This document shows positions 30,971-63,792 of a stretch of DNA of 64,000 nucleotides, in pieces; positions within the stretch are counted from its first letter, which is position 1; each line of letters begins with the position of its first letter. The notes under the pieces were generated by a model, which saw nothing but the letters and a program-made list of their open reading frames with translations, was not told the origin of the DNA and did not search any database. The DNA is from a virus. Made by a program: the position numbers and the translations under genes. The stretch lies in the IMG/VR virus record IMGVR_UViG_3300044591_002613. One strand, written 5' to 3'.

Positions 30971-31669
30971 TTACTTATCGGAGCTGCTGGCATCTAACTT
31001 TAGGGTTTTTGCGTCCTTTACTTTTTCTAAAAACCTCGAAATTTTAGTGACGTAATTAGCGGTTTCAGTGTTTATGTTTGTCATTTGTTCAACACGTTTA
31101 AGGTCTTTGGAGAATTGACCAGCATTGTAAGAGATGAGCGCAAGCGTTTTAGAGCCGTTTACGTTCTTTAAAATCTCCTTAAAAGCACATGCAGAGATTG
31201 TTAGGTTAATTTCTGTTAAGTACAAGTCTTCGTCGCTAAAATCACTGGGCAGGCCACATTTTTCTGCATACCATTTAGCCGACTTAGGCATGATCTGGCC
31301 GATACCGATTGCACCTACAGGTGATTTAGCTTTGGGGTTGAACCTACTTTCATTGGCAAGAATTGCTACCCATGTTTCACGTTCGTCGCGACTTTCAAAA
31401 GAATCCATGCCTATACGAACAATTTGCGAACCAAGATAAGCATTCTTAGCTTCGGAGTGTTTTGGTGCTGCAATAGCCATTGCATTACTAACGAATTTGA
31501 TAAACTCTTTTTGCTTGCTGTTTTGTCTGTCGAGTAGTTCGGTATATTGGTTGGCAGCGCATTCACTGCTTTGTGTGAGTTTGTGCTGAGTAACGGGTTT
31601 TGAGCAGCCAACAAGTGCAATAGAAGCAATAACCGAAGATACATACGAAAAACAATTCATTGGAAACAC
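30971..31669 (-). CDS. Lytic transglycosylase (SLT), putative lipoprotein
   Basis: ESRFNPKAKS..GAIGIGQIMP, YNAG, ET.NYV; lipobox LVGC. Confidence 0.85.
   Translation of the reverse strand: MFPMNCFSYVSSVIASIALVGCSKPVTQHKLTQSSECAANQYTELLDRQNSKQKEFIKFVSNAMAIAAPKHSEAKNAYLGSQIVRIGMDSFESRDERETWVAILANESRFNPKAKSPVGAIGIGQIMPKSAKWYAEKCGLPSDFSDEDLYLTEINLTISACAFKEILKNVNGSKTLALISYNAGQFSKDLKRVEQMTNINTETANYVTKISRFLEKVKDAKTLKLDASSSDK
30972..31002 (-). promoter_or_regulatory. Sigma-28-like promoter (16 nt spacer variant)
   Basis: TAAA-GTTAGATGCCAGCAGC-TCCGATAAGTA upstream of the VWA gene. Confidence 0.7.
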
Positions 31670-31684
31670 CTCACGTTATAGTAC

Positions 31685-31716
31685 AAAACTCTCCACCCGT
31701 GTAGCACAGGTGGAGA
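31685..31716 (-). terminator. Intrinsic terminator after MoxR ATPase
   Basis: On the - strand: TCTCCACCTGTG-CTA-CACGGGTGGAGA, a 12 bp stem with one G-U pair, followed by GTTTT. Confidence 0.6.
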
Positions 31717-31737
31717 AAGGGGCGCATCAAACCGTCC

Positions 31738-32844
31738 TTACGAACGGTCTTTCGGAGAAAGTTTGCCGAGTTTCAGTGCATAGAGCTGCCATGGAAGGCC
31801 AGTGTCTTTGATTTCCGCATCGTTCTTGCCGGGGCGATTATCTTTATAAGGCTGGCTATCTTTGTCGAGTGGGAACTCTTCTTGGTCATAACGGAACGCA
31901 AACTTGGCTTCTTGCATGGAGCGGGCAAGTTCAGGCGAACCGTATTGGAGCAGGTAATCAGCAACATGGCGTTCAACTTTTTTGAGCGTGCGCTTGCCTT
32001 CATTGGCTTCGAGTTCATTCTTGAACAAGGAAACGATTTCGATAATCATGCCCTCCTGCTCGCACTGCGCAATTTTCTCGAACGCTTCGGGCGTCACTTT
32101 GCGTGGTAGCTTAAATTCTTGTTGGCGCTTGATCTGTAACAGCGTACTTGCAAGAACATTGCCGGATTCATTGCCGAGGCGACCGCGACAAATCAAAGCC
32201 AGTTCTTCTTCGGTCAGCAACTCGGTTTCCCACAGTTGAACAGCAGCGTCAATTTGGCGTGGGCAGTTTTTCAATTTAAGCTCTGGCACACCCGGCTTGC
32301 CTGCGATCTTTGGATTGAGTTTAAGAGCTTCTTGCGCGAGTTTGCTTTGCATGTTACCAATGATTTGGAATTCATCGGGAGCAAAAACCAAGTGGGTCAA
32401 GCGGTTAATGACCGCATCGGGAAGTTCTTGCACACCGGTATCTTCAGTGTCGAGGTTACCCGCAGCAACCACCAGAACATTGTCGGGAAGCTGAATACCG
32501 TTAAGTTCACGGTCGAGCAAGAGTTGCGTAAGCATATTCAATGTTTGGATGCTATTTGGGCGATTAAGTTCATCAAGGAACAGAACGGTTGGCTCATTGC
32601 TTTTGCAAAGTTCATGGAGCCAGCGAGCAGGCCACAGGTCAACAACACGCTCGTTTTCGTTCTTAACGGGAAGTTGGATTTCAAGTGGGTCGATGAACAC
32701 AGTGCGTTTGTCAACAAGGCGATAGTTATGACGTTTGCAAAAACCTTTCACGGTGGACGATTTGCCGTAGCCGGAAGAACCCCACAAAATCAGCGGCAGC
32801 TTGGTTTTGTGATGAGCAAGAAAAATGTTGTCGAACTGTTGCAT
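31738..32844 (-). CDS. MoxR-like AAA+ ATPase
   Basis: GSSGYGKS, LFLDELNR, VAAGN, DAVINRL, PRQ; VWA partner nearby. Confidence 0.8.
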   Translation of the reverse strand: MQQFDNIFLAHHKTKLPLILWGSSGYGKSSTVKGFCKRHNYRLVDKRTVFIDPLEIQLPVKNENERVVDLWPARWLHELCKSNEPTVLFLDELNRPNSIQTLNMLTQLLLDRELNGIQLPDNVLVVAAGNLDTEDTGVQELPDAVINRLTHLVFAPDEFQIIGNMQSKLAQEALKLNPKIAGKPGVPELKLKNCPRQIDAAVQLWETELLTEEELALICRGRLGNESGNVLASTLLQIKRQQEFKLPRKVTPEAFEKIAQCEQEGMIIEIVSLFKNELEANEGKRTLKKVERHVADYLLQYGSPELARSMQEAKFAFRYDQEEFPLDKDSQPYKDNRPGKNDAEIKDTGLPWQLYALKLGKLSPKDRS

Positions 32845-32882
32845 GATGCGCTCCTAATCCACAGCGTTATTGCTGCTTACTA

Positions 32883-32912
32883 TACTTATCGGAGCTTTGC
32901 GTTCTAACTTAA
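32883..32912 (-). promoter_or_regulatory. Sigma-28-like promoter
   Basis: TTAA-GTTAGAACGCAAAGC-TCCGATAAGTA upstream of the MoxR ATPase. Confidence 0.75.
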
Positions 32913-33005
32913 TGCCTAGTCGAAAACTTTTTTATCATTGTATTTTTTGTTTGTCTTATACAAAAAACAGTCGCACACTAATAGTAGGAAACGGAGTAAC
33001 AGTAA

Positions 33006-34354: not shown

Positions 34355-34953
34355 AAACTGTATGTCTGCTTGGCCCCGATGGTTCTGGCAAAGATACTAT
34401 TTTGGATTTGATGATTGGGCAGGCTAAAGAACGTGGCTTGCTTGTTGATGTTGTTTATACAACTAAAGTTATTCATGGCAATGAATACTCCGCGTTGTTG
34501 CGCCAAACTCTTGGTTCTTCGTCTGCGACAAATGCAGAACGATTTAATGCCGCGTGGCATCTTTACAAACTAAATGAATACGAATGGCAAAAGAAAAATG
34601 CTGGCTGTGATTATCTTATTTATTATCGTGGCAATTCTTCATTCTTAACATATAACTTTATTGATGGACTTCCCGAAGGCTATCAAGCATCTATTGTCCC
34701 TAAAACTGACATTGCAATTTATTTAGATGCACCGTTCGATGACCTAACAGAGCGTATTAAGCGTCGTCAGTCTTTTGACTTCCAAGATGTTAATGAACTT
34801 TATCGTCGTAAGGTTTGGGAAGAGGGTAGTTTAGATTTCTTGGACTTTAATAAACAATTCAACATAAAACATTTCATCGCAACAAACAGTAACGATCATG
34901 TTCCATCTAAAGTTGCTCATGATATTTGGGAGGCTATAATCAATGCAACTTGA
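34351..34953 (+). CDS. Thymidylate kinase-like dNMP kinase
   Basis: GPDGSGKDT, YYRG.SS..Y, P..D..IYLDA....RIKRR. Confidence 0.65.
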   Translation: MKTVCLLGPDGSGKDTILDLMIGQAKERGLLVDVVYTTKVIHGNEYSALLRQTLGSSSATNAERFNAAWHLYKLNEYEWQKKNAGCDYLIYYRGNSSFLTYNFIDGLPEGYQASIVPKTDIAIYLDAPFDDLTERIKRRQSFDFQDVNELYRRKVWEEGSLDFLDFNKQFNIKHFIATNSNDHVPSKVAHDIWEAIINAT

Positions 34954-35440
34954 AAATCTTAAAAAGATTGTGGCTTCTAGCCCACAAACACCAGTGCTTG
35001 TCTATGCAAAACCAACATCTAAAGCACCGTTCAAAAAACGACCACAAGATGGAGGTTTTGATTTTCACGTTGACCTTATTGATACGTTTGGCGCAGATAC
35101 ACCAATTGAAATTATTCCACACCAAGTAGTCAAGCTATCTACCGGAACAAGATGCGTATTCCCTGACGAGACTGTATGGATTTGGGATGTACGCTCTAGT
35201 ATGGGGGTACTCGGTTTAGACGTATGTTGCCGAACTATTGATAACAATTACACGGGCGTCTTATCGGTTGTCATTGTGAATAACTCAAGCGAGCCAATCA
35301 CTATTAGGCATCTAGATAGAGTGGCGCAGCTGATTCCTAACCCATTCCATTCTGGATTTTATATTCAAGAAGTTTCCGAGGAACAAATCAAATCCAAGGA
35401 TGATCGCGGTTCTGGTGGATTTGGTAGTTCGGGACGCTAA
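34943..35440 (+). CDS. dut: Trimeric dUTPase
   Basis: Motifs GGFD, RSS, TID.NY.G, DRVAQ, RGSGGFGSSG. Confidence 0.85.
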   Translation: MQLENLKKIVASSPQTPVLVYAKPTSKAPFKKRPQDGGFDFHVDLIDTFGADTPIEIIPHQVVKLSTGTRCVFPDETVWIWDVRSSMGVLGLDVCCRTIDNNYTGVLSVVIVNNSSEPITIRHLDRVAQLIPNPFHSGFYIQEVSEEQIKSKDDRGSGGFGSSGR

Positions 35441-35467
35441 AGTTAGATTGCAAACTTCCGATAAGTA
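35438..35467 (+). promoter_or_regulatory. Sigma-28-like promoter (only + strand copy)
   Basis: TAAA-GTTAGATTGCAAACT-TCCGATAAGTA; the TAA is the dut stop codon. Confidence 0.8.
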
Positions 35468-35489: not shown

Positions 35490-35792
35490 ATGATGCATGT
35501 TTATACCATTTTGGAATTTGAGTACGCAGTGTGTTTTGACACCATGCGTGTATTCAAAACCCATAAGATCAAACGTATTGCCCAGGTAATCCCCGTAGAA
35601 TTTGTGGATTATCAATTTCGCGCAGAGCTTCCAACAGAAGTTCTGTTTTATTTGTTGCCGTTGTATGAAAAGTTTTTGTCGTCATTCGACAAACGAGAAG
35701 AAGGTAAGCGATTGGCCAAGTTCTTGAATTATGATCTTAACGATTTGGCAGCAAGAAACTTTAATAGCTTTACTGGAGGAAAGGGAGAATGA
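35490..35792 (+). CDS. Hypothetical protein
   Basis: RBS GGAGG directly downstream of the + strand sigma-28-like promoter. Confidence 0.6.
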   Translation: MMHVYTILEFEYAVCFDTMRVFKTHKIKRIAQVIPVEFVDYQFRAELPTEVLFYLLPLYEKFLSSFDKREEGKRLAKFLNYDLNDLAARNFNSFTGGKGE

Positions 35793-36007
35793 AGTTTATT
35801 TCATTTGTATCTATGTGCGTTATTGCTCAACAAATATGTGGTAATCAGTTGGTTGCAATTAATCAAAACACAAAAGAAATTTATACATGTAATACGGTCA
35901 CACTTGAATGCGACCAAATTTCTTGGTTAACTTTGATGCTTATCCGAAACACAAATTCATGTGATCGACTAAGGCTTGTGGATGAGTTTACCGGAAAGAG
36001 CTGCTAA
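35789..36007 (+). CDS. Small Cys-containing hypothetical protein
   Basis: RBS GGAG; ATGA overlap. Confidence 0.45.
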   Translation: MKFISFVSMCVIAQQICGNQLVAINQNTKEIYTCNTVTLECDQISWLTLMLIRNTNSCDRLRLVDEFTGKSC

Positions 36008-38785
36008 TCACTCTTCCGATGGTTTGTAGCCCATTTCTTCTGCTTTTGAAAAGTGAAACAAAGATTTTGAATAATGTTTAACAGCAGATTCTTTGTCGCC
36101 TTTCATAATAGCTTGTCGCGCCATTTCACGATATTCTTTTCCAAGTCTATTGTGGTGGTTAGCGTCTAGCTTTTCGCCTTTGTATTCTCCGCTTTCCATT
36201 GCTGGAGCAGAAATAGCTTTTTTAACGCAAGAGCCTTTGGAATAAGGTTTCTTACCGGGCACTGGTTCATATCCTTCCCAACATCTTTTTTCTAGCTCAT
36301 CGGCTAATCCAGATGTTTTGAGTTTTGAATAATAATGTGGATCTTCTGTTAAATGATCTAAGGCGATTTCTTCGGCAATTTTAGAGTCTTTCGTATGCTC
36401 TAGTTCTACTTTCATTCCATCGGCAAGTTGCCTAGCTGAAAAGTCGGATCTGCGACTTTCGTCACCTTTTCCGCCTTTGAGCTTATTGCTTTTTACAAAA
36501 GACTTATTTGCAGCATCATAATTTTGTAACAATGCTTTGGCTTTTGCGGCATCTGGGCCATAAAAATTACCCATAGAACTACCGCTTGTAGATTCTCGAG
36601 AGTAGGACGCTGCTGGATGTGAAGGATCAGCTTTTAACTGACCGGGTTCTTTAAGAACAGCTTTAGATCCAGTTTTTGGCGTGTGATACTCGCCCATAAC
36701 ATTTAAGTTAGACATCTGTGAGTGCAAATCAGATTCAGGAGATGCCTGAGCACCACCAGCTAATGCGCTTGCGCCTAGAGCTCCAGCCGTCAACATGCCT
36801 TTTAAAGAAAGCTTTTTTTCTAGGCTTTTATCCGTCGGCTCAACAACATCTGCACCCGACTTTTTTCTTTTATTAGTCAACAAAACTCTAGTAGCTCGCT
36901 CAATCAATGGATGCGAGCGACCGCTCATTAATGCTTCAGTTACTTCTTGTTTTTTGTCGGCAGGAATCAAACTAAAGTCTACAGATTTAATAGGCTGTTT
37001 TCTGTTTAGCTCTGTCAATTTTTTAGATTCAAGCTCTGCCTGGTCTTTGATAGTTCCATGCAAAGCGTTTCCTCTTTGCTGAACCGCTGTATTTGGGCCA
37101 AGACCTTCGGCTTCTAGTCCCACACGACCAAGTTTTCTTCCAAGATTGGCAGTGTTGTCATAAACATTTGTGCCAAATGGCTTTAGATTGTTACTCTTAA
37201 CAACTTTACTAAGGCTTTTAAGAACACGCTGCGCTCTTAGTTCAAGTGGGACGGATTCGCTTTTGTTTAAAGACTTGCTGCAACGCCATCTTTTAAGAGC
37301 TGCACCCTTTGGAGTCAACTTTCCTTTTTTAGACGTTGGGCCTTTAACGCCACTCATTCTTGCGCAGAATGATTTACGACGTTTAGCTGCTTTAGAGCCA
37401 GGTTTTACGTTTTTCTTAGTAACTGGACGTTTAAGATTTGAGCCAGTTTCGCGGTTTAGCTTCTTGCGATAAGAATCGTTTAAGCCCCCACTACGAGCGT
37501 GTTTCTTTTTGCTATATCCGTGAAATGGTTTTTTCTTTTTAGAAGACTTTTCGAGTTCTTGTTCAGATTTATCAAACTCATTATTAGGATTCTGGTCAAC
37601 TCCTTGTAAAAGCCTTTTGACTTGTTGCTTTACTTGTATTTTATTACGTTCATCGTAATCAATAGGAACAGGAGTTGTGTTATTTTGATTTACATTTAAT
37701 CCTTGTTTGCGTTGAATGTAATCTTGTCGTCTTTTTTCAGTTCCTGGCTGAACTACTTTCCGCCTTCCCTCTTCATTCGTAACTATAAAATTTCTTTTTG
37801 TTTTTCCTGGGCCTGCATAGTCACCAAGACGACCCCTGTTGCCCTCATAAGTATTTTGAGGGCCAGTGTATTGACCTGTTGCCTCATATTGGCTCACAAA
37901 ATTAGGGTCGGCTCTCTTTCTACTTCTAAGTTTTAGAGCAGATTCCAAATCTTTTTCTAAGTTCTCTTTTGAACTTTTCATACACTTGATGCAATCTTCA
38001 ACCTTAGCAAGCAAAGACTTTGGATCAGCCAATGCTTCCATAGATTTAGCCGCAGGAAGAGCTGGAGGCTTAATTTCTTGAGCTTGAACTTTTGGTCTGT
38101 CAATTAAATGGCCAGGGATTCTAGGAGGAATATCTTGTGGGCCAACACCATGCCCGACTGTCAATTGTCCACGAGCAGCGTGATAAGCATCAGCGCGGTC
38201 GGCTGGAATCTTTCTCCCACCAGCAATATCCATGATGGTTGAACCGTGTTGACGGCGGAATTCTTTCATTTGGTTACGGAAGTCTAGAGCACCTTTAGCC
38301 TTCTTTTCGTAATCGCCTATTTCATCATCGGCCTTGGCAATACCGTCAACTGTATTGGCAATTCTATCCGGTGTAAATTCACTTCCGTGAATAGACTTTT
38401 CTGCTTTTTGTTTCTTTTTACTAAGCATTTCGCAGCATTCTTTTGCCTTGGCAAGAATGTTTTTATTATGCTTAAGATAGCCAGAAATATCTGATAAATC
38501 GGTTTTGGCTCTGTTTATTTTGCCGTCAACCCAATCTTCAAGTTCTTGTTTACCATCAATCATCGAATTGATTTTTTCGGACATTTCGTTGATTTCTGCC
38601 AAGAACTGTTTGGCCATATCACTGCCATCACCCTCGCCAGCTTTCTCAACTTTTTCTGGCAGCTTGCCGGGTTCATCGTGCGAAACCATTCTTTTTGCTT
38701 CCGCTTGACTGATATCAGCTTTAGTGTCTTTTCCTGCTGCTGCGGCATACATTAATCTACGTTGAGCTTCGCTTTGAAATGGCAT
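36008..38785 (-). CDS. Mosaic multi-domain protein, probable head-internal protein
   Basis: PFQSEAQRR.M, LEDWV..KI, RRKSFCARM..W.C (DUF6321-like), G.KVELEHT...IALDHL.E.P.YY..L (DUF5661-like), CWEGY..C; recurring xxK(S/A). Confidence 0.6.
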   Translation of the reverse strand: MPFQSEAQRRLMYAAAAGKDTKADISQAEAKRMVSHDEPGKLPEKVEKAGEGDGSDMAKQFLAEINEMSEKINSMIDGKQELEDWVDGKINRAKTDLSDISGYLKHNKNILAKAKECCEMLSKKKQKAEKSIHGSEFTPDRIANTVDGIAKADDEIGDYEKKAKGALDFRNQMKEFRRQHGSTIMDIAGGRKIPADRADAYHAARGQLTVGHGVGPQDIPPRIPGHLIDRPKVQAQEIKPPALPAAKSMEALADPKSLLAKVEDCIKCMKSSKENLEKDLESALKLRSRKRADPNFVSQYEATGQYTGPQNTYEGNRGRLGDYAGPGKTKRNFIVTNEEGRRKVVQPGTEKRRQDYIQRKQGLNVNQNNTTPVPIDYDERNKIQVKQQVKRLLQGVDQNPNNEFDKSEQELEKSSKKKKPFHGYSKKKHARSGGLNDSYRKKLNRETGSNLKRPVTKKNVKPGSKAAKRRKSFCARMSGVKGPTSKKGKLTPKGAALKRWRCSKSLNKSESVPLELRAQRVLKSLSKVVKSNNLKPFGTNVYDNTANLGRKLGRVGLEAEGLGPNTAVQQRGNALHGTIKDQAELESKKLTELNRKQPIKSVDFSLIPADKKQEVTEALMSGRSHPLIERATRVLLTNKRKKSGADVVEPTDKSLEKKLSLKGMLTAGALGASALAGGAQASPESDLHSQMSNLNVMGEYHTPKTGSKAVLKEPGQLKADPSHPAASYSRESTSGSSMGNFYGPDAAKAKALLQNYDAANKSFVKSNKLKGGKGDESRRSDFSARQLADGMKVELEHTKDSKIAEEIALDHLTEDPHYYSKLKTSGLADELEKRCWEGYEPVPGKKPYSKGSCVKKAISAPAMESGEYKGEKLDANHHNRLGKEYREMARQAIMKGDKESAVKHYSKSLFHFSKAEEMGYKPSEE

Positions 38786-38789: not shown

Positions 38790-39674
38790 TTAGTCCCTCA
38801 TATAAACGGGCATACTGTTAGAAAGTTCATCTGCGAATTTAACATCTTCAATTTCGTTTTGATGATGTTCAGTTACAGAACCGTCGGGACGACGGATAGA
38901 GTACATATTTCCACCGCCTTCTTCCAATGGCTTTTTATTGTCAACAATATCTACAAGCGGGTGATATTCTTCCGAACCAGATAATTTAATCATCCATCCC
39001 CTGGATTTATCATCTTCAGCCTTTTTCATATATGTGGCTGGATTGCCAGAAACAGTATTTGTGGCATGAAAAACCAAGTTTTTTTCCGCTTCAGCTTGGC
39101 TTCGGTGATCAGAAGTAGGCATCATAGCGTTTAGCTCTTTGCCGCTCATTGTGCCGACGTGTTCGCTGCCTTGATAGATGTGGTAATCTATGTGGTCGTG
39201 AAAACCTTTGCCGTCATTTTCACTTTTACGAAGCGGTGCTCTTTTAAGCGCAGAAATTACTTCATGTAGCCTATTCATAGAATGAGCATGCAAGCCAGAT
39301 TCAGCCATATCTGTGGGCGAACCGCCCCAAACAGAGTACATATATTTTTCAAAGTCTTCTGGAACAGAAGGGTATAGCTCTTTAATCTTTTCATAAAGAG
39401 CTTCGATTAGGCCAATGGTCTTGTGTTCGTTTTGGAATATACCGAGTTTTACAATAGAGGGAATGCGACTAGACTCCCATACAGTAAACGCACCAATCAC
39501 TGAATCAGAATACGGGTGACGTACTTCATAGTGGTCAAGACTATTAACGCCTCTTGCCAAGTCAGTGTATGGCGGTAATTGCGAAGAAACCTTAATTAGA
39601 ATATAGTTGTCTTTAAGAGCGTGCTCTTTTCCAAGACTTTTAGCTAAACTCAAGACTTGTTTTATTTTTTTCAT
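38790..39674 (-). CDS. Hypothetical protein, possibly head-internal
   Basis: Adjacent to and co-oriented with the 925 aa gene; LAKS/LRKS motifs; start moved to ATG 39674. Confidence 0.5.
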   Translation of the reverse strand: MKKIKQVLSLAKSLGKEHALKDNYILIKVSSQLPPYTDLARGVNSLDHYEVRHPYSDSVIGAFTVWESSRIPSIVKLGIFQNEHKTIGLIEALYEKIKELYPSVPEDFEKYMYSVWGGSPTDMAESGLHAHSMNRLHEVISALKRAPLRKSENDGKGFHDHIDYHIYQGSEHVGTMSGKELNAMMPTSDHRSQAEAEKNLVFHATNTVSGNPATYMKKAEDDKSRGWMIKLSGSEEYHPLVDIVDNKKPLEEGGGNMYSIRRPDGSVTEHHQNEIEDVKFADELSNSMPVYMRD

Positions 39675-39683
39675 AGGTTTCTC

Positions 39684-41069
39684 GTGATAAAGAATATTCC
39701 AAACACACAAGGTTATTATACATCTAATCAAGAGTTGATTATTCAGGGTACGCCCGAATCTTTAGCTCTAATTAAAAATTACCTAACAATTAAGAATAAA
39801 GCAATCGACAAAAGGCTGAAAGAACTAAAAAGAACCTCTGCTTTTAATGCTAAACACGCTCATGTTTTGAAGCAACAAATTAAAGAGTTAGAGGAACAAC
39901 TCGTCACTAAAGCCTACGCAGAAGTCGATGATGGTATTAGCACCCTCCCAGGATTTTGGTTCTTATGCAATAAAGTTGAGGGACATACGGCCTCAACCAA
40001 AGCAATAACCTTCGGCGATGAACGCTATTATCAACTAGAATCTGTGCAAACCGCCCTTCAATATAAGAGATCGTGTATAGTAGCAGCCACGGGTGTTGGC
40101 AAGAGTCGTATCATTCGTAACTTAGCAGCCTCACACGTTGCTCAAGGTCGCCGGGTTATCGTTATTGTGCCGAGCATCGAGCTGTTGCACCAGACTTATA
40201 AAACCGTAGTCAGCGGCATGGACAAAATTGGCTGTAAGAAAGTCGGCAAACTTGGTGGAGGAACCACCCCCCCAGACGGGGTGATGTGTTTGGTATCTAC
40301 AGCCCAAAGCTGCCTCAATTATATTGATCGTTTCCAGACCATCATAGTAGACGAAACTCACACGATGGCAGCTCCGTCTTACCAAGATATTGCGATTGCA
40401 GGTATCAACGCCGAGTTCTTCCACGGCCTTACTGCAACTATTGAAAGACCAGATGGCATGACGCCTCTTATTTACGGTTGGGCTGGCGCACCAGTGTACG
40501 TCTACCGATACTCTGATGGCGTCCAGGATGGCTTCCTGAGTCCTGTTAAGTACATACCCAAGGTAGTGTCGACGTGTAGCGTCAAAACAAGCAAGAATAT
40601 GCACTCAACAAAAGAATATATCAAGCTTCATTCTGACCCAGAATATATTAAGTTTGTCAAAGAAACTACCGAAAAGGCTCTGGCCGCTAATCGTAAAGTC
40701 TTAGTTTTGTTTAAGTCTGTAGAATGTGCTAATGCTTTGGCTTCTGCGCTTGAAACAGACGCAGCTAATGGCGAGTATAGACTGCCAATTAAAAAGTTTA
40801 AAGACGGTGATACAAATGTTCTAATTGGTAATTGGCATCTATTAGGAACTGGAATTGACCTACCAGAAATATCGGCTATTTTGCTCTGTATGGCAAGCAC
40901 CAGTGAAATTATGCTTATGCAGGCTATCGGAAGAGGCACAAGAATTTGCGAAGGAAAGAAAGACTGTGTTGTAATTGATATAAGCCCAAATCATGCTAAA
41001 TATATCAATCAATTGGCTAGGAGAGATGAGATTGTTCGGTCGTTTGGGATTGACTCTGTCGGTCTATAA
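39684..41069 (+). CDS. SF2 DExH helicase (UvsW-like)
   Basis: ATGVGKS, VPS, VDETH, GLTAT, GTGIDLP, QAIGRGTR; start uncertain. Confidence 0.85.
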   Translation: MIKNIPNTQGYYTSNQELIIQGTPESLALIKNYLTIKNKAIDKRLKELKRTSAFNAKHAHVLKQQIKELEEQLVTKAYAEVDDGISTLPGFWFLCNKVEGHTASTKAITFGDERYYQLESVQTALQYKRSCIVAATGVGKSRIIRNLAASHVAQGRRVIVIVPSIELLHQTYKTVVSGMDKIGCKKVGKLGGGTTPPDGVMCLVSTAQSCLNYIDRFQTIIVDETHTMAAPSYQDIAIAGINAEFFHGLTATIERPDGMTPLIYGWAGAPVYVYRYSDGVQDGFLSPVKYIPKVVSTCSVKTSKNMHSTKEYIKLHSDPEYIKFVKETTEKALAANRKVLVLFKSVECANALASALETDAANGEYRLPIKKFKDGDTNVLIGNWHLLGTGIDLPEISAILLCMASTSEIMLMQAIGRGTRICEGKKDCVVIDISPNHAKYINQLARRDEIVRSFGIDSVGL

Positions 41070-52103: not shown

Positions 52104-52133
52104 TACTTATCGGAGTTTTAGGTTCTAACTTTA
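52104..52133 (-). promoter_or_regulatory. Sigma-28-like promoter
   Basis: TAAAGTTAGA-N9-TCCGATAAGTA. Confidence 0.8.
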
Positions 52134-53065: not shown

Positions 53066-53116
53066 GTTACCTCCCTATGATTGGAGCAGTGCGATTGGCG
53101 GGAAATTGCTCCGATA

Positions 53117-53146
53117 TACTTATCGGAGGTTTTGGTTCTAACTTTA
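53117..53146 (-). promoter_or_regulatory. Sigma-28-like promoter with palindromic -10
   Basis: TAAAGTTAGA-N9-TCCGATAAGTA; CTCCGATA-N4-TATCGGAG at 53109..53128. Confidence 0.8.
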
Positions 53147-53734
53147 ATAAAATTCGCAAAAAACATTAAAAGAAACAGACACTTTATTCCCATCTGTTGA
53201 GGGAGAATAATGTTTTAATGACGAGGGAAATAAAAAAGTTTCTCCTTCTTGTGCATAATTTGTATTATGTAATTTTTCAAAATCTAAACAACCATCGGGA
53301 GAAGAAAACGCAGTCAGATTTTTGCCTTCTAAATTTAGAAGATAAAAACCGCTTATTTTAATTTTTTTAAAGAAAACAGATTCACCGTGGTCATGTAAAT
53401 AAACATGATCTCCAGTGTCATAAACATTCCACCATATTTTATTCAAACCAGCGGTTTTAATTTCTTGGTTTTTGTAAATTTGGTGTTTGCGGAGCAGTTC
53501 ATTTAATGGTTCAAAAATAACATTATCAAAGAAAAATTTATCAAAAACGCTTGGCGGTTTTTCAATGTTTGAATGACATAAATTGGTTTTTCTTCCACCA
53601 AAATAATATTCATCTTTTAATTTATTTTTTTCAAATTCTTCTAATATCTTAGGAAGATATATTTGCTTTACCTCTTCATGCCTGTTCACTTTTGTGTGGA
53701 AGACAAAGGGGGGTGTAAACTCAAATATATCCAT
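53144..53734 (-). CDS. Putative 2OG-Fe(II) oxygenase (TIGR02466-like)
   Basis: WWNVY..GD....HDH, ISG.Y, EG...LFPS.LKH, K.SVSFN. Confidence 0.7.
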   Translation of the reverse strand: MDIFEFTPPFVFHTKVNRHEEVKQIYLPKILEEFEKNKLKDEYYFGGRKTNLCHSNIEKPPSVFDKFFFDNVIFEPLNELLRKHQIYKNQEIKTAGLNKIWWNVYDTGDHVYLHDHGESVFFKKIKISGFYLLNLEGKNLTAFSSPDGCLDFEKLHNTNYAQEGETFLFPSSLKHYSPSTDGNKVSVSFNVFCEFY

Positions 53735-53750: not shown

Positions 53751-54488
53751 TTATTTTGGTGTTAAAATCTGCCGTTGTCCTTGACCACCCCCACCTGCGC
53801 CACCATAAACAAGAGGACAAGCGGCTTTTTTAGTTTCTTGGACAGGAGGTGTTGCGAGCAGTTCTTGAGAACATGTTACAAGAACGATTTTGTCTGCAGT
53901 TTTGTTTTTAATTGCATCTTCGCCAACAATCCACCAATCGTGAGCAATTTTTTCTTGGAGTTCTTTTACAGTTAATCCAAGCCGTTTAGCTATTTGAGCA
54001 TCCATCACATCTACAAGGCGTTTCACAAAGGCAATTTGTGAATCCATGCTTCTTAGCTGACCCCGTGTACCGCCACTTACCTGATGGTGCATCAAGATGG
54101 TGGTTGGAGCAACAAACCTGTCATCGCAAGCGGCCTGAAGAAAGTAAAAGGCCATAGAAGCAGCCGAACCGACCAAGCAAGTGACTCGAAGATTTGAGTT
54201 TGCAGCTTTGGCTGCGCGAACAGTCTCGATTGCTCTAAGGCCGTCCATGACGCTTCCGCCAGGAGAATCAATATAAACAGTGATTTCGTTTGAACTTTGG
54301 CTCAAAAAGTCTCTAATAAACCTAGAAACGCTATCCGTATTAAACTCTTCTGTAAATGTAACAAAAGAATTAGGTTTTAAGACCACAACCTCTGGCTGCT
54401 GTGGAGGTGGTTGTACTTCTGTTTTTGCCGCAGCAATAGCAGAAGCACTTAAAAGACTAAATGCAACAAGTTTCTTAAAAAAGTTCAT
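53751..54488 (-). CDS. ClpP-family serine protease with N-terminal signal peptide
   Basis: YIDSPGGSV, AASMA (catalytic Ser), MHHQ, D.W; MNFFKKLVAFSLLSASAIA signal. Confidence 0.8.
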   Translation of the reverse strand: MNFFKKLVAFSLLSASAIAAAKTEVQPPPQQPEVVVLKPNSFVTFTEEFNTDSVSRFIRDFLSQSSNEITVYIDSPGGSVMDGLRAIETVRAAKAANSNLRVTCLVGSAASMAFYFLQAACDDRFVAPTTILMHHQVSGGTRGQLRSMDSQIAFVKRLVDVMDAQIAKRLGLTVKELQEKIAHDWWIVGEDAIKNKTADKIVLVTCSQELLATPPVQETKKAACPLVYGGAGGGGQGQRQILTPK

Positions 54489-54854: not shown

Positions 54855-55178
54855 TCAAATACGGCTTGGATCTAAAATCAATATCAGTTTTTCAATTTTT
54901 GCAACTAATTCTTCACAGGAAACTTTAGTCTTTTCAAAATGGGGATAAATTTCATAGTAAAAATTCACTTTGTCGCTATCCGAGATGCTTTTCAGCACCG
55001 AAATATTTTCAGACAACTCTTTCGAAGTATATTTTGCTGTGTTCTCTGGCATGTTTTCTTCGGAATAATAAAATCTAAATAACACTTCTGTATTTTCTGG
55101 AACTTTAATTACAATCTCCGCAGGATTGTTGATAAAAAGCCTACTTGTATTGATAGTAGGATACGTTTCGAGCTTCAT
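54855..55178 (-). CDS. Hypothetical protein
   Basis: RBS GGAGG after promoter. Confidence 0.6.
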   Translation of the reverse strand: MKLETYPTINTSRLFINNPAEIVIKVPENTEVLFRFYYSEENMPENTAKYTSKELSENISVLKSISDSDKVNFYYEIYPHFEKTKVSCEELVAKIEKLILILDPSRI

Positions 55179-55192: not shown

Positions 55193-55573
55193 TTACATAT
55201 ACTTATCGGAAGTTTTGGCTCTAACTTTAATACTATTGCAATCAATTTTTAGCGTTATTCCTTCTAAAACATTGAATTTTCCTACAGTGGAAGACAAGCC
55301 TGAATCCCATTTATTATTATCTAAACGCCAACGATAATAATATCTTTTATTTTTATGGTCAATTTTTTCAACGCGAACAAAATGCCTAGACTTCCAAACA
55401 TTAGATGTTGGATCTACTAACATTAGACAATCGCCAATAGCGTACTTGCTTGTCGGTTCTTTGAGTGCGTCTTGAGGAACAATAGGCGCTTCTGTTGGTT
55501 TGTTAGAAACACATGCCGCCAGTAGGCCAAACAACGCTATCTTACTAAATGTATTCAACCCATCCGTCCTCAT
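55193..55573 (-). CDS. Putative lipoprotein
   Basis: Lipobox LAAC; C-terminus reads through the promoter. Confidence 0.55.
   Translation of the reverse strand: MRTDGLNTFSKIALFGLLAACVSNKPTEAPIVPQDALKEPTSKYAIGDCLMLVDPTSNVWKSRHFVRVEKIDHKNKRYYYRWRLDNNKWDSGLSSTVGKFNVLEGITLKIDCNSIKVRAKTSDKYM
55200..55229 (-). promoter_or_regulatory. Sigma-28-like promoter
   Basis: TAAAGTTAGA-N9-TCCGATAAGTA. Confidence 0.8.
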
Positions 55574-56144: not shown

Positions 56145-56606
56145 TTAAAGACTTTGTGCATAATCGTCAATTTGATATTCGTAAAAACTACTTTCTAATT
56201 GAAACTCATCTTCAAACTCTTTCGGTAGCGTTTCAAAACATTCTGGCGTATGTGGGTAGTTATACTCAGTCATATGTCCGTTGTCATATTTGCCTAAAAT
56301 ACAACCACCCGATTCATCCCACAGGGCATAAACGTCAAAGCCTAGTTCGTTCATTTTGAAATAAAATTGAACTGGAGGACTCCATGCAGTCATAAAATAT
56401 AGTTTCATCATGTTATTTTCTTGGATAGCAACAGTGGGTTCGCTAATCTCCCACTTTGTTCCCCAATGATCAAAATGGCTCTGGCCTTCTGGAACTGAAG
56501 CAAACGTACTAAATAAGTTCTCTTGATTACTCGCATCAACTGCTTTTTTGATCATCGACTGATCATAATGCCTGAGTGTTAAAACATTCGTACACCAGTT
56601 TGGCAT
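56145..56606 (-). CDS. DUF1281/YubB ferredoxin-like protein
   Basis: MPNWC.N.L, WGTKW, F.TAWSPP. Confidence 0.7.
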   Translation of the reverse strand: MPNWCTNVLTLRHYDQSMIKKAVDASNQENLFSTFASVPEGQSHFDHWGTKWEISEPTVAIQENNMMKLYFMTAWSPPVQFYFKMNELGFDVYALWDESGGCILGKYDNGHMTEYNYPHTPECFETLPKEFEDEFQLESSFYEYQIDDYAQSL

Positions 56607-56629: not shown

Positions 56630-56659
56630 TACTTATCGGAAGTTTGCAATCTAACTTTA
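56630..56659 (-). promoter_or_regulatory. Sigma-28-like promoter
   Basis: TAAAGTTAGATTGCAAACTTCCGATAAGTA. Confidence 0.8.
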
Positions 56660-56660: not shown

Positions 56661-57011
56661 TTAAATTTTTTCAAGGTCTCTTTGTAGAATATGTTTTCCA
56701 CAAGCTACATATCGCCATTCACTGTCAACTATAGATCCTGGTTGTCCGCATCTTTCGCAAGTTGTTTGGCTTCTTTTACACGCTTCGCTGATCAACTCAT
56801 AGTCTTCGTCGGAGTATAGAGCCGCATATATTCTCATAGAGCCAAACTTTTCTTTTATTTGCCTAAAATAAATATCTTTATTATGAGACAACTGCTCGCA
56901 CAGATCCCATATAATTTCATACCAGCCTTCATTTATTTCAAACGAACACTTTTTCAGTTTCTTTGGGAAGGCTTCCATTAAGTCTTCGTAGGTTATTTTT
57001 TTAGGTTTCAT
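56661..57011 (-). CDS. Conserved phage protein
   Basis: GW..I..L, QIKEKFG..RIY, S...CE.CG.PG. Confidence 0.6.
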   Translation of the reverse strand: MKPKKITYEDLMEAFPKKLKKCSFEINEGWYEIIWDLCEQLSHNKDIYFRQIKEKFGSMRIYAALYSDEDYELISEACKRSQTTCERCGQPGSIVDSEWRYVACGKHILQRDLEKI

Positions 57012-57666
57012 TGGTAGTCCACGCTTTTGATGGTGCGCCATGATAAATCAGGCCGATATTTGGAGAATCCCCCAAGCCCGCCACTAGGTCATCTTCACTC
57101 GCATCAACGTATCCGGCAGCAAGCAATTCTTCTCGAGAACCAAAAACTCTGGAGTGAGGTTTTGAACGGTCGATTTCTTTATCGAACAGGCCACCCTCAC
57201 TAAATATGAGCTTGAAGTTTTGTGGAACGGTGATAGCGCGAAAGAATCGAACCATCTTTGTATAGGCATAGAACCTAATGTTTGGATTAGCCTCCATGAT
57301 TTGTTTCCACTTGCGCCAGTAGTTGAGCGCATAGAAGTCGCCGGAATCATGTATTCTAATAACAACCTGTGTATTCTTTTTAGATGCTTTTCTTACAATT
57401 TCGTTAATTTCAAGCTGCATTAGTTCTGGAAAGCTTTCTAATGTAGTTTGAGTATATCGCCATTCATAAACAGAGGCTACATTTGAAAATCTATATGCAC
57501 CTTGCTGAGCATAACAACCGTTTTCTTTGGCACAGATGCCAGCGGCAGGGCAAGTTATCTTGCCATCTCGTGTTTTATAGGCGGTGATACCAAAATTCCA
57601 CAACTGAATATCATGTTTTTTGCCAGACTTTCTGATTTTGGCATTTTTAGTCAAGAGCGTTGGCAT
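57001..57666 (-). CDS. Gp88-like protein (radical-SAM-like fold)
   Basis: TCP.AG.C....CYA..G, RIHDSGDFY, FYAYTK; RBS GGAGG before ATG 57666. Confidence 0.7.
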   Translation of the reverse strand: MPTLLTKNAKIRKSGKKHDIQLWNFGITAYKTRDGKITCPAAGICAKENGCYAQQGAYRFSNVASVYEWRYTQTTLESFPELMQLEINEIVRKASKKNTQVVIRIHDSGDFYALNYWRKWKQIMEANPNIRFYAYTKMVRFFRAITVPQNFKLIFSEGGLFDKEIDRSKPHSRVFGSREELLAAGYVDASEDDLVAGLGDSPNIGLIYHGAPSKAWTTNET

Positions 57667-57682
57667 GTTATTTCCTCCACTA

Positions 57683-57712
57683 AACATATCGGAGTTTTAC
57701 AATCTAACTTTA
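57683..57712 (-). promoter_or_regulatory. Sigma-28-like promoter (-10 variant TCCGATAT)
   Basis: TAAAGTTAGA-N9-TCCGATATGTT. Confidence 0.75.
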
Positions 57713-57988
57713 TAGTTCAAACGAAAGGCTTAAATCATTTTTAAGCTGTTCTATATCGCCATGAATCAAAACTTTTTCTTCCCAATTATGTTCAAAAATG
57801 GGTAAACCCTTGGCATCTCTAATTAATCTTTTGTTTCCATCTAGTTGGTAATAGCCAAGTTCTCCAAGAGCCTCTGACATTTCTGTAAATCTATTTATCC
57901 ACTTAATCTTTTGATCACCCAGTTTAACAAACGCCCATCTATGTGCATCCATTATGACAGCTTTAGTTCTTGCTTGATATATCATCAT
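57710..57988 (-). CDS. Hypothetical protein
   Basis: Stop coincides with promoter -35. Confidence 0.5.
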   Translation of the reverse strand: MMIYQARTKAVIMDAHRWAFVKLGDQKIKWINRFTEMSEALGELGYYQLDGNKRLIRDAKGLPIFEHNWEEKVLIHGDIEQLKNDLSLSFEL

Positions 57989-58193
57989 CGCTGTAAAATC
58001 CTCTTTCGATTAAAGCATTTGTAAGATGTTTTTCAAAATAAACTTGTACATCACGTCTTTGCAGTGGGCTCCAGCACTGCGGCAAAGATGTTTCCAGCTC
58101 TTCGATCAACATATCAAATAGAGATATAACGGCTTTATATTCATTAAATACCGATTCTTTTGACGGGCTAGTAGTATCGTTTTTCATAAACAT
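57963..58193 (-). CDS. Hypothetical protein
   Basis: RBS GGGAGG after promoter. Confidence 0.55.
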   Translation of the reverse strand: MFMKNDTTSPSKESVFNEYKAVISLFDMLIEELETSLPQCWSPLQRRDVQVYFEKHLTNALIERGFYSDDDISSKN

Positions 58194-58208: not shown

Positions 58209-58238
58209 TACTTATCGGAAGTTTGCAATCTAACTTTA
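58209..58238 (-). promoter_or_regulatory. Sigma-28-like promoter
   Basis: TAAAGTTAGATTGCAAACTTCCGATAAGTA. Confidence 0.8.
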
Positions 58239-58239
58239 G

Positions 58240-58851
58240 TTAATGAGTGGCAAATTTCCAATCTTCTGGGTATAAGAAAATATTTCCAGAAATTGTGCAA
58301 CGATTTGTATCTTGTTTTTGCATATGAACGCCGTGGCTGAGGTGAGATGGGAAAATAATCATTTGCCCCTCCTTCACTTGTGGCGAAAAAATATCTGGCC
58401 AATGCGTTTTGCTAAATAAACTCAAAATTCGATTTAAACCAGAGGCCGAGTAATTTTTAGCCTTATCATTTACGAAATAAAACTCTGCATCATTTTCATT
58501 AAGATTCATAAAATAAACATAAGAAAAATTTGAAATTGGAGATACGTGATGATGAATTTCTTGCCAACAGCCTTGGTTATAAATATTCATCCAAACAGAT
58601 TCTATGTTGTATTTAAGTTCTTTATGTGCCCCAAAATCATTAACCATCTTTAACACTGCAAAATGTAATTGTTTTAAAAACAATTCGTAATCTATTTCTT
58701 TATTTTTTGCGCGACTTGTGAATACTTTGCAGGGCCACATCAATTGTTCTTGGCATTTTTCTTTTGCAATTGGTAAGAAATGATCTTTTAAAGATTCGTG
58801 GTTAGTAACTTCATAAATGTAATAAAACTCTGGAAATAATTGTTGAATCAT
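58240..58851 (-). CDS. Putative 2OG-Fe(II) oxygenase (TIGR02466-like)
   Basis: W.NIY.....QEIHHH, S.VYF, EG..IIFPS.L.H.V, R.TISGN. Confidence 0.75.
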   Translation of the reverse strand: MIQQLFPEFYYIYEVTNHESLKDHFLPIAKEKCQEQLMWPCKVFTSRAKNKEIDYELFLKQLHFAVLKMVNDFGAHKELKYNIESVWMNIYNQGCWQEIHHHVSPISNFSYVYFMNLNENDAEFYFVNDKAKNYSASGLNRILSLFSKTHWPDIFSPQVKEGQMIIFPSHLSHGVHMQKQDTNRCTISGNIFLYPEDWKFATH

Positions 58852-58869
58852 ATATTAAACTCCCACATA

Positions 58870-58899
58870 TACTTATCGGAAGTTTGGAGTCTAACTTTA
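58870..58899 (-). promoter_or_regulatory. Sigma-28-like promoter
   Basis: TAAAGTTAGA-N9-TCCGATAAGTA. Confidence 0.8.
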
Positions 58900-61581: not shown

Positions 61582-61590
61582 TTCAATCTC

Positions 61591-61857
61591 CTAATCAACC
61601 CATTCGTATTCAAACACGTCTACTTTACAACCAAAAATGCCATACAAAATACCCGGAAGACAAAACGGATTAAACGGAACTTCTTTAAGCCGCTTAGTGT
61701 CATCTGAATGAACATTGCATTTATAAATAAAATTTTTTGTTGGATAACCCTTCAAAAGAGTCACATCTTCAAAATTGTCATCCAATTGAATCACAACTTC
61801 TGCGGGTCTGGAAACCCGATAGTTAGTCCACTCAATGTTGAATATCCGAATTATCAT
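61591..61857 (-). CDS. Hypothetical protein
   Basis: RBS AAGGAG after promoter; FG..V..FEYEWV shared with the partial ORF at the window end. Confidence 0.55.
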   Translation of the reverse strand: MIIRIFNIEWTNYRVSRPAEVVIQLDDNFEDVTLLKGYPTKNFIYKCNVHSDDTKRLKEVPFNPFCLPGILYGIFGCKVDVFEYEWVD

Positions 61858-61878: not shown

Positions 61879-61908
61879 TACTTATCGGAACTTTGGAATC
61901 TAACTTTA
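61879..61908 (-). promoter_or_regulatory. Sigma-28-like promoter
   Basis: TAAAGTTAGA-N9-TCCGATAAGTA. Confidence 0.8.
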
Positions 61909-61914
61909 GCGTTT

Positions 61915-62205: not shown

Positions 62206-62575
62206 ATAATTCCAACATATGATAGCGCAATGCTTTTACGTCTCTGTAACTCCATTCCATAGCAAATGAGCTTGCCTGACGCAACCAGTTTTCGCTTTTA
62301 ATCTTTTTACCCGCTGTGACCATAACATCAACATATTCGCAAAACACCATTTTGACCCCTCCGTTGATCCATTCTTGTTCTCCGTCCAAATACCAAAATA
62401 CATTGATGTAACTTGGTTTTTTATCTACTTTTGAAATAGCAATCTGAGAAGGGTAAGGCAAATCATCGCCAATTAATTCTGTTAAAAATTTTATGACCGT
62501 TTCGTTATCGGCAGCATGAGGAAACGTGGCCACGGCTTCAATATCGCTTTTTATTTTCTCATAAAGTTTTTGCAT
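62189..62575 (-). CDS. Paralog family B protein
   Basis: V.KFL.EL....LP.P..I......I.V.W...M.ELYA. Confidence 0.55.
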   Translation of the reverse strand: MQKLYEKIKSDIEAVATFPHAADNETVIKFLTELIGDDLPYPSQIAISKVDKKPSYINVFWYLDGEQEWINGGVKMVFCEYVDVMVTAGKKIKSENWLRQASSFAMEWSYRDVKALRYHMLELYAETI

Positions 62576-62924
62576 ATAACTCCGTCATATATTTTTTTAT
62601 TTTTAAAACCTCTTCATATTTCCAATGTTTTGTTAATAAATGATTAATTTGTTCTGGCTTATAAACATCAAAAAGAGAAACGCCCGCAGGATAATTGCTT
62701 GCGATCAAGTAAATTTCAAGCCAGTCGTGATAACGGAAGTTGATTGCAACACCTAAATCATCCCATTGAACAAATATACGTTCATCTTTGGCACCAACTT
62801 CTGGTGGCGGCAAACCACCGGATAATAGTTCAGAAAGAAACAATTTTACTTTCTTTTTCTGGTCAACAGCCCATCCATCTGAGCCAAGGCTATCAATTTG
62901 TTTGCCTAATTCTTTAGATAACAC
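62559..62924 (-). CDS. Paralog family B protein
   Basis: V.LFL.EL....LP.P......I.V.W...IKKYM.ELYA. Confidence 0.55.
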   Translation of the reverse strand: MLSKELGKQIDSLGSDGWAVDQKKKVKLFLSELLSGGLPPPEVGAKDERIFVQWDDLGVAINFRYHDWLEIYLIASNYPAGVSLFDVYKPEQINHLLTKHWKYEEVLKIKKYMTELYAKTL

Positions 62925-63285
62925 GAGAATATATGTCCACCATAAGTTTTTTGATTATTGGCAAATCTTCGTAGCAACGATCTGCCCTAAATTCATATAA
63001 AATATGTCGAAACACTGGATCTGTTAACTCTTCTAGAAAATAGGCATACGGTGCTATCGACGTCTGATAAAACTCTAAAAGAATAGACTGGTATCCGTCT
63101 TCCCCATTACCATTAAATCTCCACCTGACTGATATTGGAATACCATCTGCTGGAATGATTATGTTTGTTGGGAGCGGAAGGTCGGTATTCTCCAATAACT
63201 GCTGCACAAAGCGTTCTGCTTTTTCTTTGAGGATCTTTTTATCCTGTTCAGATATTTTTAGGTGGTCGGGAAGATCGTATTTCAT
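62914..63285 (-). CDS. Paralog family B protein
   Basis: F...L....LP.P..I....DG..I.V.W...YED...IKKLM..IY. Confidence 0.55.
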   Translation of the reverse strand: MKYDLPDHLKISEQDKKILKEKAERFVQQLLENTDLPLPTNIIIPADGIPISVRWRFNGNGEDGYQSILLEFYQTSIAPYAYFLEELTDPVFRHILYEFRADRCYEDLPIIKKLMVDIYSRVI

Positions 63286-63497
63286 ACGTCTACCCAACTA
63301 CCGACTAAATCAAACTGTTCAATATCATAGCGATGGGCATAAGAATCCCAACCTTTTTCTTTACATTGTTGTATGTGACTTTGTCGAACTTCTTCTAGTT
63401 TGCGCTCGGCATCTTCCCTTTGAAGGAAAATTGTGGATTCTAGGCCGTCAACAAACTCCCATCCTGCTCCGTCAAATAAAACCATATAGGCTTTCAT
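63282..63497 (-). CDS. Paralog family C protein
   Basis: MK.YMV, IFLQ.EDA....E, L.GSWVDV. Confidence 0.55.
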   Translation of the reverse strand: MKAYMVLFDGAGWEFVDGLESTIFLQREDAERKLEEVRQSHIQQCKEKGWDSYAHRYDIEQFDLVGSWVDV

Positions 63498-63745
63498 ACG
63501 TCTATCCAGCTTCCTTTTAATTCAAGTTGAATGTGGCTAAATTCATAATGTTCTCTTTCTTTGTATCTTTCACAAAAAGACTTATGAGCCTCGGTAAGAT
63601 GTTCTACTCGCTTAAGAGCATCTTTTTCTTGCAAGAAAACAAAGTCGTCAAACCAGTTATCGGGAAATCGGGTGACGTTTCCCATAACATCCATATCATG
63701 ATGGATTCTCATTCGATACACCATAAAAACTTTCATGAAGACCAC
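63494..63745 (-). CDS. Paralog family C protein
   Basis: MKVFMV, VFLQ..DA...VE, L.GSWIDV; follows a promoter copy. Confidence 0.55.
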   Translation of the reverse strand: MVFMKVFMVYRMRIHHDMDVMGNVTRFPDNWFDDFVFLQEKDALKRVEHLTEAHKSFCERYKEREHYEFSHIQLELKGSWIDV

Positions 63746-63762
63746 CCTTTGTTCCTTATATA

Positions 63763-63792
63763 TACTTATCGGAACAATACAATCTAACTTTA
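63763..63792 (-). promoter_or_regulatory. Sigma-28-like promoter
   Basis: TAAAGTTAGA-N9-TCCGATAAGTA. Confidence 0.8.

Follow-up and report, generated by a model that had tools for sequence, protein, structure and literature searches.

Promoters of the sigma-28 family are read by FliA in Escherichia coli, Salmonella and Pseudomonas, by SigD in Bacillus and by WhiG in Streptomyces, and transcription from them starts about 7–9 nucleotides (nt) downstream of the -10 box. Phage early genes, in the textbook account, are transcribed with the host housekeeping sigma factor or by a phage polymerase. The published FliA consensus is TAAAGTTT-N11-GCCGATAA (PMC7286023). In the attack phase of Bdellovibrio bacteriovorus, 92 of 140 promoters read TTAAG-N16-CCGATA (Karunker et al, 2013; PMC3627812), and sigma-28 can therefore act as a global sigma factor. 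We analyzed a 64-kb stretch (hereafter the window) of an uncultured freshwater phage genome of ~170 kb (IMG/VR record IMGVR_UViG_3300044591_002613), which carries 20 copies of a 30-bp element between positions 30972 and 63792. The phage is novel and myovirus-like. We place about even confidence in these elements being promoters of one sharply defined early or host-takeover class that is read by the sigma-28 holoenzyme of the host.

The pattern AAGTTAGA-N8-12-TCCGATA had 20 exact matches in the window, 19 on the minus strand and one on the plus strand (35440), and none in 100 dinucleotide-preserving shuffles of it. The window contains 24 TCCGATA heptamers, of which 20 belong to element copies. 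An alignment that includes the flanks gives cTAAAGTTAGA-ttccAAAct-TCCGATAAGTAtATgTAAGGAGG...ATG, and the full consensus is cTAAAGTTAGA-N9-TCCGATAAGTA, also written cTAAAGTTAGA-N9-TCCGATA(A/T)GTA. Nineteen copies have an N9 gap and one (30976–31000) an N10 gap; the 9-nt middle is variable, with a preference for ttccAAAct. The -35 box is TAAAGTTA in 18 copies and TTAAGTTA in two, and the -10 box is TCCGATAA in 19 copies and TCCGATAT in one (the 57687 copy). When the 64 kb were scanned with a weight matrix built from 35 sites of the window phage and a relative, all N9 copies scored 39–50 bits and everything else at most 8 bits; with scores this bimodal, the element class is all-or-none. The scan found no copy in the tail-fibre and structural block at 1–29 kb. 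An earlier sequence-only reading of the window had listed 20 copies, and we recovered the same coordinates, with the listed start lying 4 nt beyond TCCGATA. Its further descriptions also held up: TAAA-N15-TCCGATA in 19 of 20 copies was borne out by the pattern search, nothing above 8 bits lay in the 29-kb structural block said to be free of copies, and the variant copy at 57683 does carry TCCGATAT. A motif scan of the window and a sigma-28 comparison, of the kind that it had proposed, gave the bimodal scores above and a consensus that matches sigma-28.

The phage consensus, TAAAGTTA-N11-TCCGATAA, agrees with the FliA consensus at 14 of 16 positions and has an equal gap. It thus shares with the class-3 flagellar promoters of sigma-28 (FliA, SigD, WhiG) seven of eight positions in the -35 box, seven of eight in the -10 box, and the 11-nt gap. 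This gap between the 8-mers (TAAA-N15-GCCGATAA) was present in 19 of 20 copies, the remaining one having 12 nt, and the copies show both the TAAA(GTTT) of the sigma-28 -35 box and the (G)CCGATA(A/T) of its -10 box. Scanning 50 kb of the flagellar region of E. coli MG1655 with the phage consensus and its own spacing placed the best two hits directly upstream of tar and fliD, and the fliC promoter was among the hits with five mismatches. The sigma-28-type two-box layout and spacing proposed from the letters alone was therefore upheld, both by the match to the consensus and by the recovery of these three promoters. Unlike flagellar class-3 promoters, the elements are located on a phage, serve non-flagellar orphan genes, occur 20 times in 33 kb and have at least 17 invariant positions.

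No near match to the window was found among 50,697 phage records, and the closest cultured phage was Myxococcus phage Mx1, at ~28% amino-acid identity. Relatives were collected from metagenome contigs by a pattern scan, which yielded 13 fragments 80–93% identical to the window and a 169,059-bp contig, G001, listed in IMG/VR as a viral genome (CheckV 100% complete, 36% G+C) and collinear with the window at ~70% identity. The large open reading frames (ORFs) of G001 include tail sheath, terminase, tail fibres, DnaE, ribonucleotide reductase, GroEL and an SbcC-like protein. The 13 fragments carry 41 exact and ~10 near copies of the element. In G001, 16 exact copies and variants all lie within 106.7–137.4 kb, the block that matches window 30–64 kb; their -10 box is mostly TCCGATATGT, and this G001 version, mostly TCCGATAT, corresponds to the SigD-type -10 box. 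Even the N10 variant of the window recurs at the orthologous position in fragment L012 and in G001 (137346). In total, more than 90 copies from phages only ~70% identical agree at 17 or more positions. Because the element is conserved while the surrounding DNA diverges, its boxes and spacing are under selection.

Each of the 20 window copies has, downstream on its own strand, a purine-rich ribosome-binding site that begins ~8–40 nt after the -10 box and then a start codon at a distance of 19–55 nt from TCCGATA. The earlier claim that every copy is directed at a downstream start, usually with a ribosome-binding site, thus applies to 20 of 20 copies, and the lone plus-strand copy indeed precedes plus-strand genes (35490–36007). 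Nine of the 20 copies share the TAA of TAAAG (-35 box) with the upstream gene as its stop codon, and five further copies start 2–7 nt past that stop codon. Between 42 and 64 kb, 17 copies stand at the head of operons of ~1.3 kb. Taken together, the gene-proximal position, the common orientation and the conservation in relatives while flanks diverge support the view, drawn from sequence, that the elements behave as promoters.

In window 28–64 kb, neither sigma-70-type promoters (50 versus 58.3 expected, and 33 versus 36.4) nor intrinsic terminators were enriched, extended -10 boxes (TGnTAWAAT) were not enriched, and a k-mer survey of all gene-upstream regions returned only the element and the ribosome-binding site. 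A T4-type late promoter was rejected for G001, where TATAAATA was not enriched. T7-like promoters of single-subunit polymerases have a continuous conserved block of ~20 bp through +1; the phage motif is bipartite with a variable middle.

A second class of CCGATA elements was seen in G001 at 101,000–106,800 (L022 1000–6800), beyond the equivalent of the window's end and just upstream of the array. It reads TTTAAGTTTACC-N10-RCCGATAAA (also written aaaTTTAAGTTTACC-N10-RCCGATAAA) and is present in six copies on both strands. Interleaved with these are six TAACAGAGCTCTGTTA palindromes, 11 sigma-54-like TTGGCA(C/T)-N5-TTGC boxes, often as imperfect palindromes, and strong terminators rich in G/C. 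This region may be the true immediate-early control region. The attack-phase promoters of Bdellovibrio form a useful point of comparison, being sigma-28-type promoters used for a broad, non-flagellar programme of the swimming stage; their TTAAG start also occurs in two window copies and in the second class of G001, and their N16 gap compares with N15 in the window phage and N17 in that second class.

As both boxes (TAAAGTTA at -35 and TCCGATAA/T at -10) and the 11 nt that separate them match sigma-28, the most likely reader of the elements is the host core RNA polymerase with the host's own sigma-28-family factor. Such a holoenzyme, with FliA, SigD or WhiG as its sigma, would transcribe the block from starts ~7–8 nt after TCCGATAA and so produce 5' leaders of ~12–45 nt that hold the ribosome-binding site. 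The copies would each drive operons of ~1.3 kb, composed of small, mostly orphan genes and a few named ones. The block would then be an early or host-takeover region, and its early expression would depend on a host state with active sigma-28. The identical 30-bp copies also serve as recombination joints for the gain, loss and swap of cassettes, which would help to keep them uniform. It is from the sequence that we infer promoter activity, the transcription start, the early timing and host sigma-28 as the reader. Host sigma-28 is favoured on three grounds: if the reader were unrelated to sigma-28, both boxes and the gap would have to be products of convergence; if it were related, the searches should have picked it up; and the block looks early and contains no other promoter signal.

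Somewhat more tentatively, and a little short of even confidence, we suggest that this phage group lacks a sigma factor and RNA polymerase of its own, hands its whole early programme to the motility or dispersal sigma-28 of the host, and infects only swimming cells. Such swimmers could be planktonic cells with flagella, or predators in an attack phase dominated by sigma-28. If true, an early regulon placed wholly on a life-stage-specific alternative sigma of the host would give viruses a novel means of sensing host physiology, and susceptibility would be predicted to depend on motility state. Full-text literature searches turned up no description of a phage regulon built from host sigma-28 promoters. 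Bastille-like Bacillus phages and Microcystis phage MaAM05 carry their own FliA/SigF/SigG-like sigma gene, in contrast to the present group, which has the promoters without a detectable sigma.

The sequence-only reading had left the reader as either the host sigma or a sigma-28-like phage factor encoded outside the window. Of this claim, the promoter-like behaviour and the sigma-28 boxes stood, and the phage factor became less likely, as no recognizable sigma was found in the complete relative. G001 was searched in six frames, and the 64 kb of the window were searched for FliA/SigF-like sigmas. No Sigma70_r2 match, ECF-type sigma or sigma region-2 signature was present in G001, and neither G001 nor the window matched E. 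coli FliA, four phage FliA/SigF-like sigmas or the joint profile of these. Among 106 mid-size ORFs of G001, none fell into a sigma family at E <8e-7. Sigma-54, an enhancer-binding protein and FlgM were likewise not found in G001, and its large ORFs included no RNA polymerase (Pfam, PHROGs). A search of G001 with PF00940 (T7-like RNA polymerase) gave no match and was uninformative, the control being silent in all control genomes as well. FliA finds homologues in 183 phage records, so a conventional sigma-28 homologue would have been seen. The suggestion that a FliA/WhiG-like sigma or an RNA polymerase is located elsewhere in the genome thus found no backing in G001, and the absence of a recognizable sigma from this complete relative shifts the odds toward a host sigma.

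One G001 protein was tried as a candidate sigma and rejected. This protein of 188 amino acids (aa), encoded in the portal operon (72973–73539), has a weak Sigma70_r4 match (E = 1.6e-4, 0.004), but its N-terminus is rich in Cys, region 2 is lacking, and its helix-turn-helix aligns weakly with NarL/LuxR-type domains. Its only homologues are close ones, all within this phage clade, and its AlphaFold model was too poor to use (pLDDT 41).

Several points weigh against host sigma-28 as the reader. Most ORFs in the promoter block of G001 belong to no family, and a divergent sigma, an adaptor or a virion-delivered factor could be among them. The genome of the window phage itself was searched only within the 64-kb window of its ~170 kb. 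None of the tests made here identified the host, so FliA and flagella in the host are assumed. Little sigma-28 is present in model bacteria, and FlgM sequesters it, which would make it a risky choice for early genes. The probable hypermodified thymidine of this phage group (a 5-hmdU DNA kinase is encoded in G001) may change promoter recognition. The second class in G001 has a different -35 box and 2 extra nt in the gap, for which a single host sigma offers no obvious explanation. The near-invariance of the copies looks like that of a phage-specific promoter class rather than of ordinary host sigma-28 promoters, which are far more degenerate; the invariant bases outside the sigma-28 consensus are AGA after TAAAGTT, T before CCGATA, and GT after CCGATA.

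The alternative that best survives, although we consider it unlikely, is that the promoters are read by a phage-made specificity factor not recognizable by sequence, be it a divergent sigma, a sigma appropriator or a virion-delivered protein, in which case the block would be a middle class and not an immediate-early one. Very divergent phage sigmas such as T4 gp55 and SPO1 gp34 exist. The all-or-none nature of the class, with invariant positions beyond the sigma-28 consensus, would suit such a factor, as would the almost complete lack of annotation among the small ORFs of the block and a portal whose distant relatives are those of Herelleviridae, a family in which phage sigmas abound. The true immediate-early genes could lie in the separate control region of G001, where the other CCGATA class occurs together with palindromes and strong terminators, and for this reason an unrecognised phage factor retains a clear minority share of our confidence. 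Classical phage-sigma regulons are equally uniform: those of SPO1 gp28 and gp33/34 and of phiEco32 gp36 are phage-wide, non-sigma-70 classes like the present one. The late promoters of SPO1, CGTTAGA-N17-19-GATATT, even share the words GTTAGA and GATA(T) with the element (PMC3601020). The spacing does not fit, as GTTAGA and GATA are 12 nt apart here versus N17-19 in SPO1, i.e. 5–7 nt closer, and an SPO1-late-type identity was therefore rejected. No gp28-, gp34- or gp36-like sigma was detectable in G001. A factor unrelated to sigma-28 would, moreover, need to have converged on both boxes and the exact spacing, and searches across the whole of G001 revealed neither a region 2 nor a region 4 architecture of a sigma, the sole region-4-like helix-turn-helix being that of the 188-aa Cys-rich protein, which is of NarL/LuxR type and lacks region 2.

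A conventional FliA/SigF-type sigma gene could instead be located in the phage's own genome outside the window and read the array. The 183 phage records with FliA-like proteins, Bastille-like Bacillus phages and Microcystis phage MaAM05 among them, give precedent for such a gene, and the phage's own sequence was examined over the 64-kb window only. Since Pfam, NCBIfam, phmmer and profile searches revealed no such gene in G001, which has the same array and gene order, we regard this as improbable.

Slightly less probable still is that the repeats serve primarily as sites of recombination or as cassette boundaries, or else act at the RNA level, for example as processing sites or translation enhancers, and resemble sigma-28 promoters by accident. 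Cassettes are lost and replaced exactly at the copies, and stop codons are fused into the element, as this idea would have it. Against it, two boxes at a fixed spacing around a variable middle are the mark of sigma recognition and unlike an RNA structure or the target of a dimeric-site recombinase, and the copies point strictly toward ribosome-binding sites and start codons in a 30-kb block with no other promoter signal. By our own estimate, a 14/16 match with equal spacing would arise by chance at ~1e-5 or less, many sigma consensuses and spacings being allowed for. That the element is read by the principal sigma of the host's lineage, making these ordinary housekeeping-type early promoters, has some room in that the host was not identified and no sigma-70-type signal is enriched anywhere in the phage, but it is the least credible explanation, as we know of no bacterial lineage whose primary sigma reads TAAA-N15-CCGATA, the motif is the alternative sigma-28 consensus conserved from Proteobacteria to Bacillota and Bdellovibrionota, and in the 38 bacterial genomes with the exact core the hits are single and mostly intragenic.

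The role of the copies as joints can be followed at one site. A 2-oxoglutarate (2OG)-Fe(II) oxygenase gene and its promoter (~58239–58899) form a cassette between two promoter copies. This cassette is precisely missing from fragment L004 (1060–1200), where a single hybrid promoter copy joins the flanks, and in L005 (1000–1420) and L009 an unrelated shorter gene occupies the oxygenase slot. Such loss and replacement at the copies indicates that they are also recombination joints, and it shows how early-gene repertoires turn over. Recombination between copies (concerted evolution) could explain their uniformity, though only in part. Promoter-early stem-loop (PeSL) cassettes were reportedly described by Arbiol et al in 2010 from hyperplastic regions of T4-type phages. 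Shared with them are repeated early-promoter sequences that flank small novel ORFs and serve as shuffling joints; PeSL cassettes combine sigma-70 promoters with a stem-loop, whereas the present element is of sigma-28 type, is fused to the upstream stop codon and has no stem-loop.

The promoter-proximal first genes nearly all lack a Pfam or PHROG family, as is usual for phage early regions. Named genes are an AAA ATPase, a weak VWA/metallopeptidase-like protein, a GP88-family protein and two 2OG-Fe(II) oxygenase-like proteins, and the operons also contain a ClpP-like protease gene (53751–54488) and an SLT-domain transglycosylase gene (30971–31669). The copy at 30972–31002 (minus strand, as are all others except where stated) is the N10 spacer variant and lies upstream of the 590-aa VWA-like/metallopeptidase-like gene (29199–30971). 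The next, at 32883–32912, is a TTAAGTTAGA variant upstream of the 368-aa AAA ATPase gene (31738–32844), with its ortholog at G001 135427. The only plus-strand copy (35438–35467) precedes the small plus-strand genes at 35490–36007, and its TAA is the stop codon of 34943–35440; its ortholog, G001 132953, is likewise on the strand opposite to the other G001 copies. The copy at 42307–42336 lies upstream of a 96-aa ORF without a PHROG family (41997–42287). Two neighbouring copies, at 46336–46365 and 46809–46838, lie upstream of ORFs of 123 aa (45933–46304) and 140 aa (46363–46785), respectively, and the stop codon of the latter ORF is the TAA of the former copy. At 48097–48126, a copy upstream of a 235-aa ORF (47374–48081) takes its TAA from the stop of 48124–48492, and at 48773–48802, a copy upstream of an 84-aa ORF (48489–48743) takes it from the stop of 48800–49282. 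The copy at 50138–50167, upstream of a 137-aa ORF (49705–50118), also includes the upstream gene's stop codon.

Further along the block, the second TTAAGTTAGA variant (50566–50595) is upstream of an ORF that ends at 50165 and whose ATG is ~24 nt after the -10 box. A 91-aa ORF (51276–51551) follows the copy at 51571–51600, and a 159-aa ORF (51603–52082) follows that at 52104–52133, where TAA is the stop of 52131–52463. The copy at 53117–53146 (the 53121 copy), whose TAA is the stop of 53144–53734, has its -10 box inside a perfect 20-nt palindrome, CTCCGATATACTTATCGGAG (53109–53128), and the longest leader, with the start codon 55 nt downstream; the palindrome may be an operator or an attenuating hairpin. 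Copies at 55200–55229 and 56630–56659 precede ORFs of 107 aa (54855–55178) and 153 aa (56145–56606). The copy with the TCCGATAT -10 box (57683–57712) is upstream of the GP88-family gene (57001–57687), its TAA being the stop of 57710–57988. The two edges of the mobile cassette are the copies at 58209–58238, upstream of a 76-aa ORF (57963–58193), and at 58870–58899, upstream of the 2OG-Fe(II) oxygenase gene (58240–58851). The last two, at 61879–61908 and 63763–63792, precede an 88-aa ORF (61591–61857) and an 83-aa ORF that ends at 63494, with its ATG ~30 nt after the -10 box.

The exact 17-nt core of the element was also sought across 185,579 species genomes, where it gave 38 single hits, about the chance level and mostly inside genes. 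Two of these were in metagenome-assembled genomes of Bdellovibrionota, one of which (L073) showed a phage-like layout. In L073, from a member of the Bacteriovoracaceae, the hit (2218–2243, minus strand) reads cTAAAGTTAGA-N9-TCCGATAAG...AGGAG...ATG and precedes a 267-aa protein without a clear family assignment; the same genome has nine TAAAGTT-N12-14-CCGATA sites versus none in the control. Cores with up to two mismatches were not enriched in the core-hit genomes, the G001 palindrome was absent from them, and BLAST of window 44–64 kb against 401 Bdellovibrionota genomes returned only noise, with no spacer-like hits. A Bdellovibrio-like host thus gained no real support from the core, palindrome and BLAST tests. 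TAAAGTT-N13-CCGATA occurred ~0.9 times per genome in 201 Bdellovibrionota genomes versus ~0.2 in the control, a count made in this single phylum with no comparison phylum, so that it does not single out Bdellovibrionota as the host. A GT9 heptosyltransferase-like ORF among the 106 mid-size ORFs of G001 hints at a Gram-negative, lipopolysaccharide-bearing host, and the SLT-domain protein likewise hints at a Gram-negative one.

Further features of the phage group were noted. The 5-hmdU DNA kinase and an alliinase-like pyridoxal phosphate enzyme of G001 (79776–80699 and 96164–97231) suggest that the group probably hypermodifies thymidine, and the GP88-family gene (57001–57687) can be listed alongside them; a Mom-family ORF is also present among the 106 mid-size ORFs of G001. 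The only tRNA gene of G001 is a tRNA-Ile (anticodon TAT) at 139,435–139,510 (L023 19435–19510), and the window contains no tRNA gene. Window 1–15,000 contains many tandem tail-fibre, tail-collar and baseplate-wedge-like genes, which suggests a complex multi-fibre adsorption apparatus. At 36008–38785 (minus strand), a 925-aa protein with DUF6321 and DUF5661 is encoded with no promoter copy directly upstream, and its DUF6321 module is 50–62% identical to small proteins of Pelagibacter, Synechococcus and Prochlorococcus podoviruses. A UvsW/DEAD-type helicase gene (39657–41069, plus strand) runs against the flow of the block and diverges from a 313-aa gene (38790–39731, minus strand). Because the GTG start of the helicase is only ~10 bp from the start of the divergent gene, both promoters must be within coding sequence, and this arrangement is kept in G001, L006 and L013.

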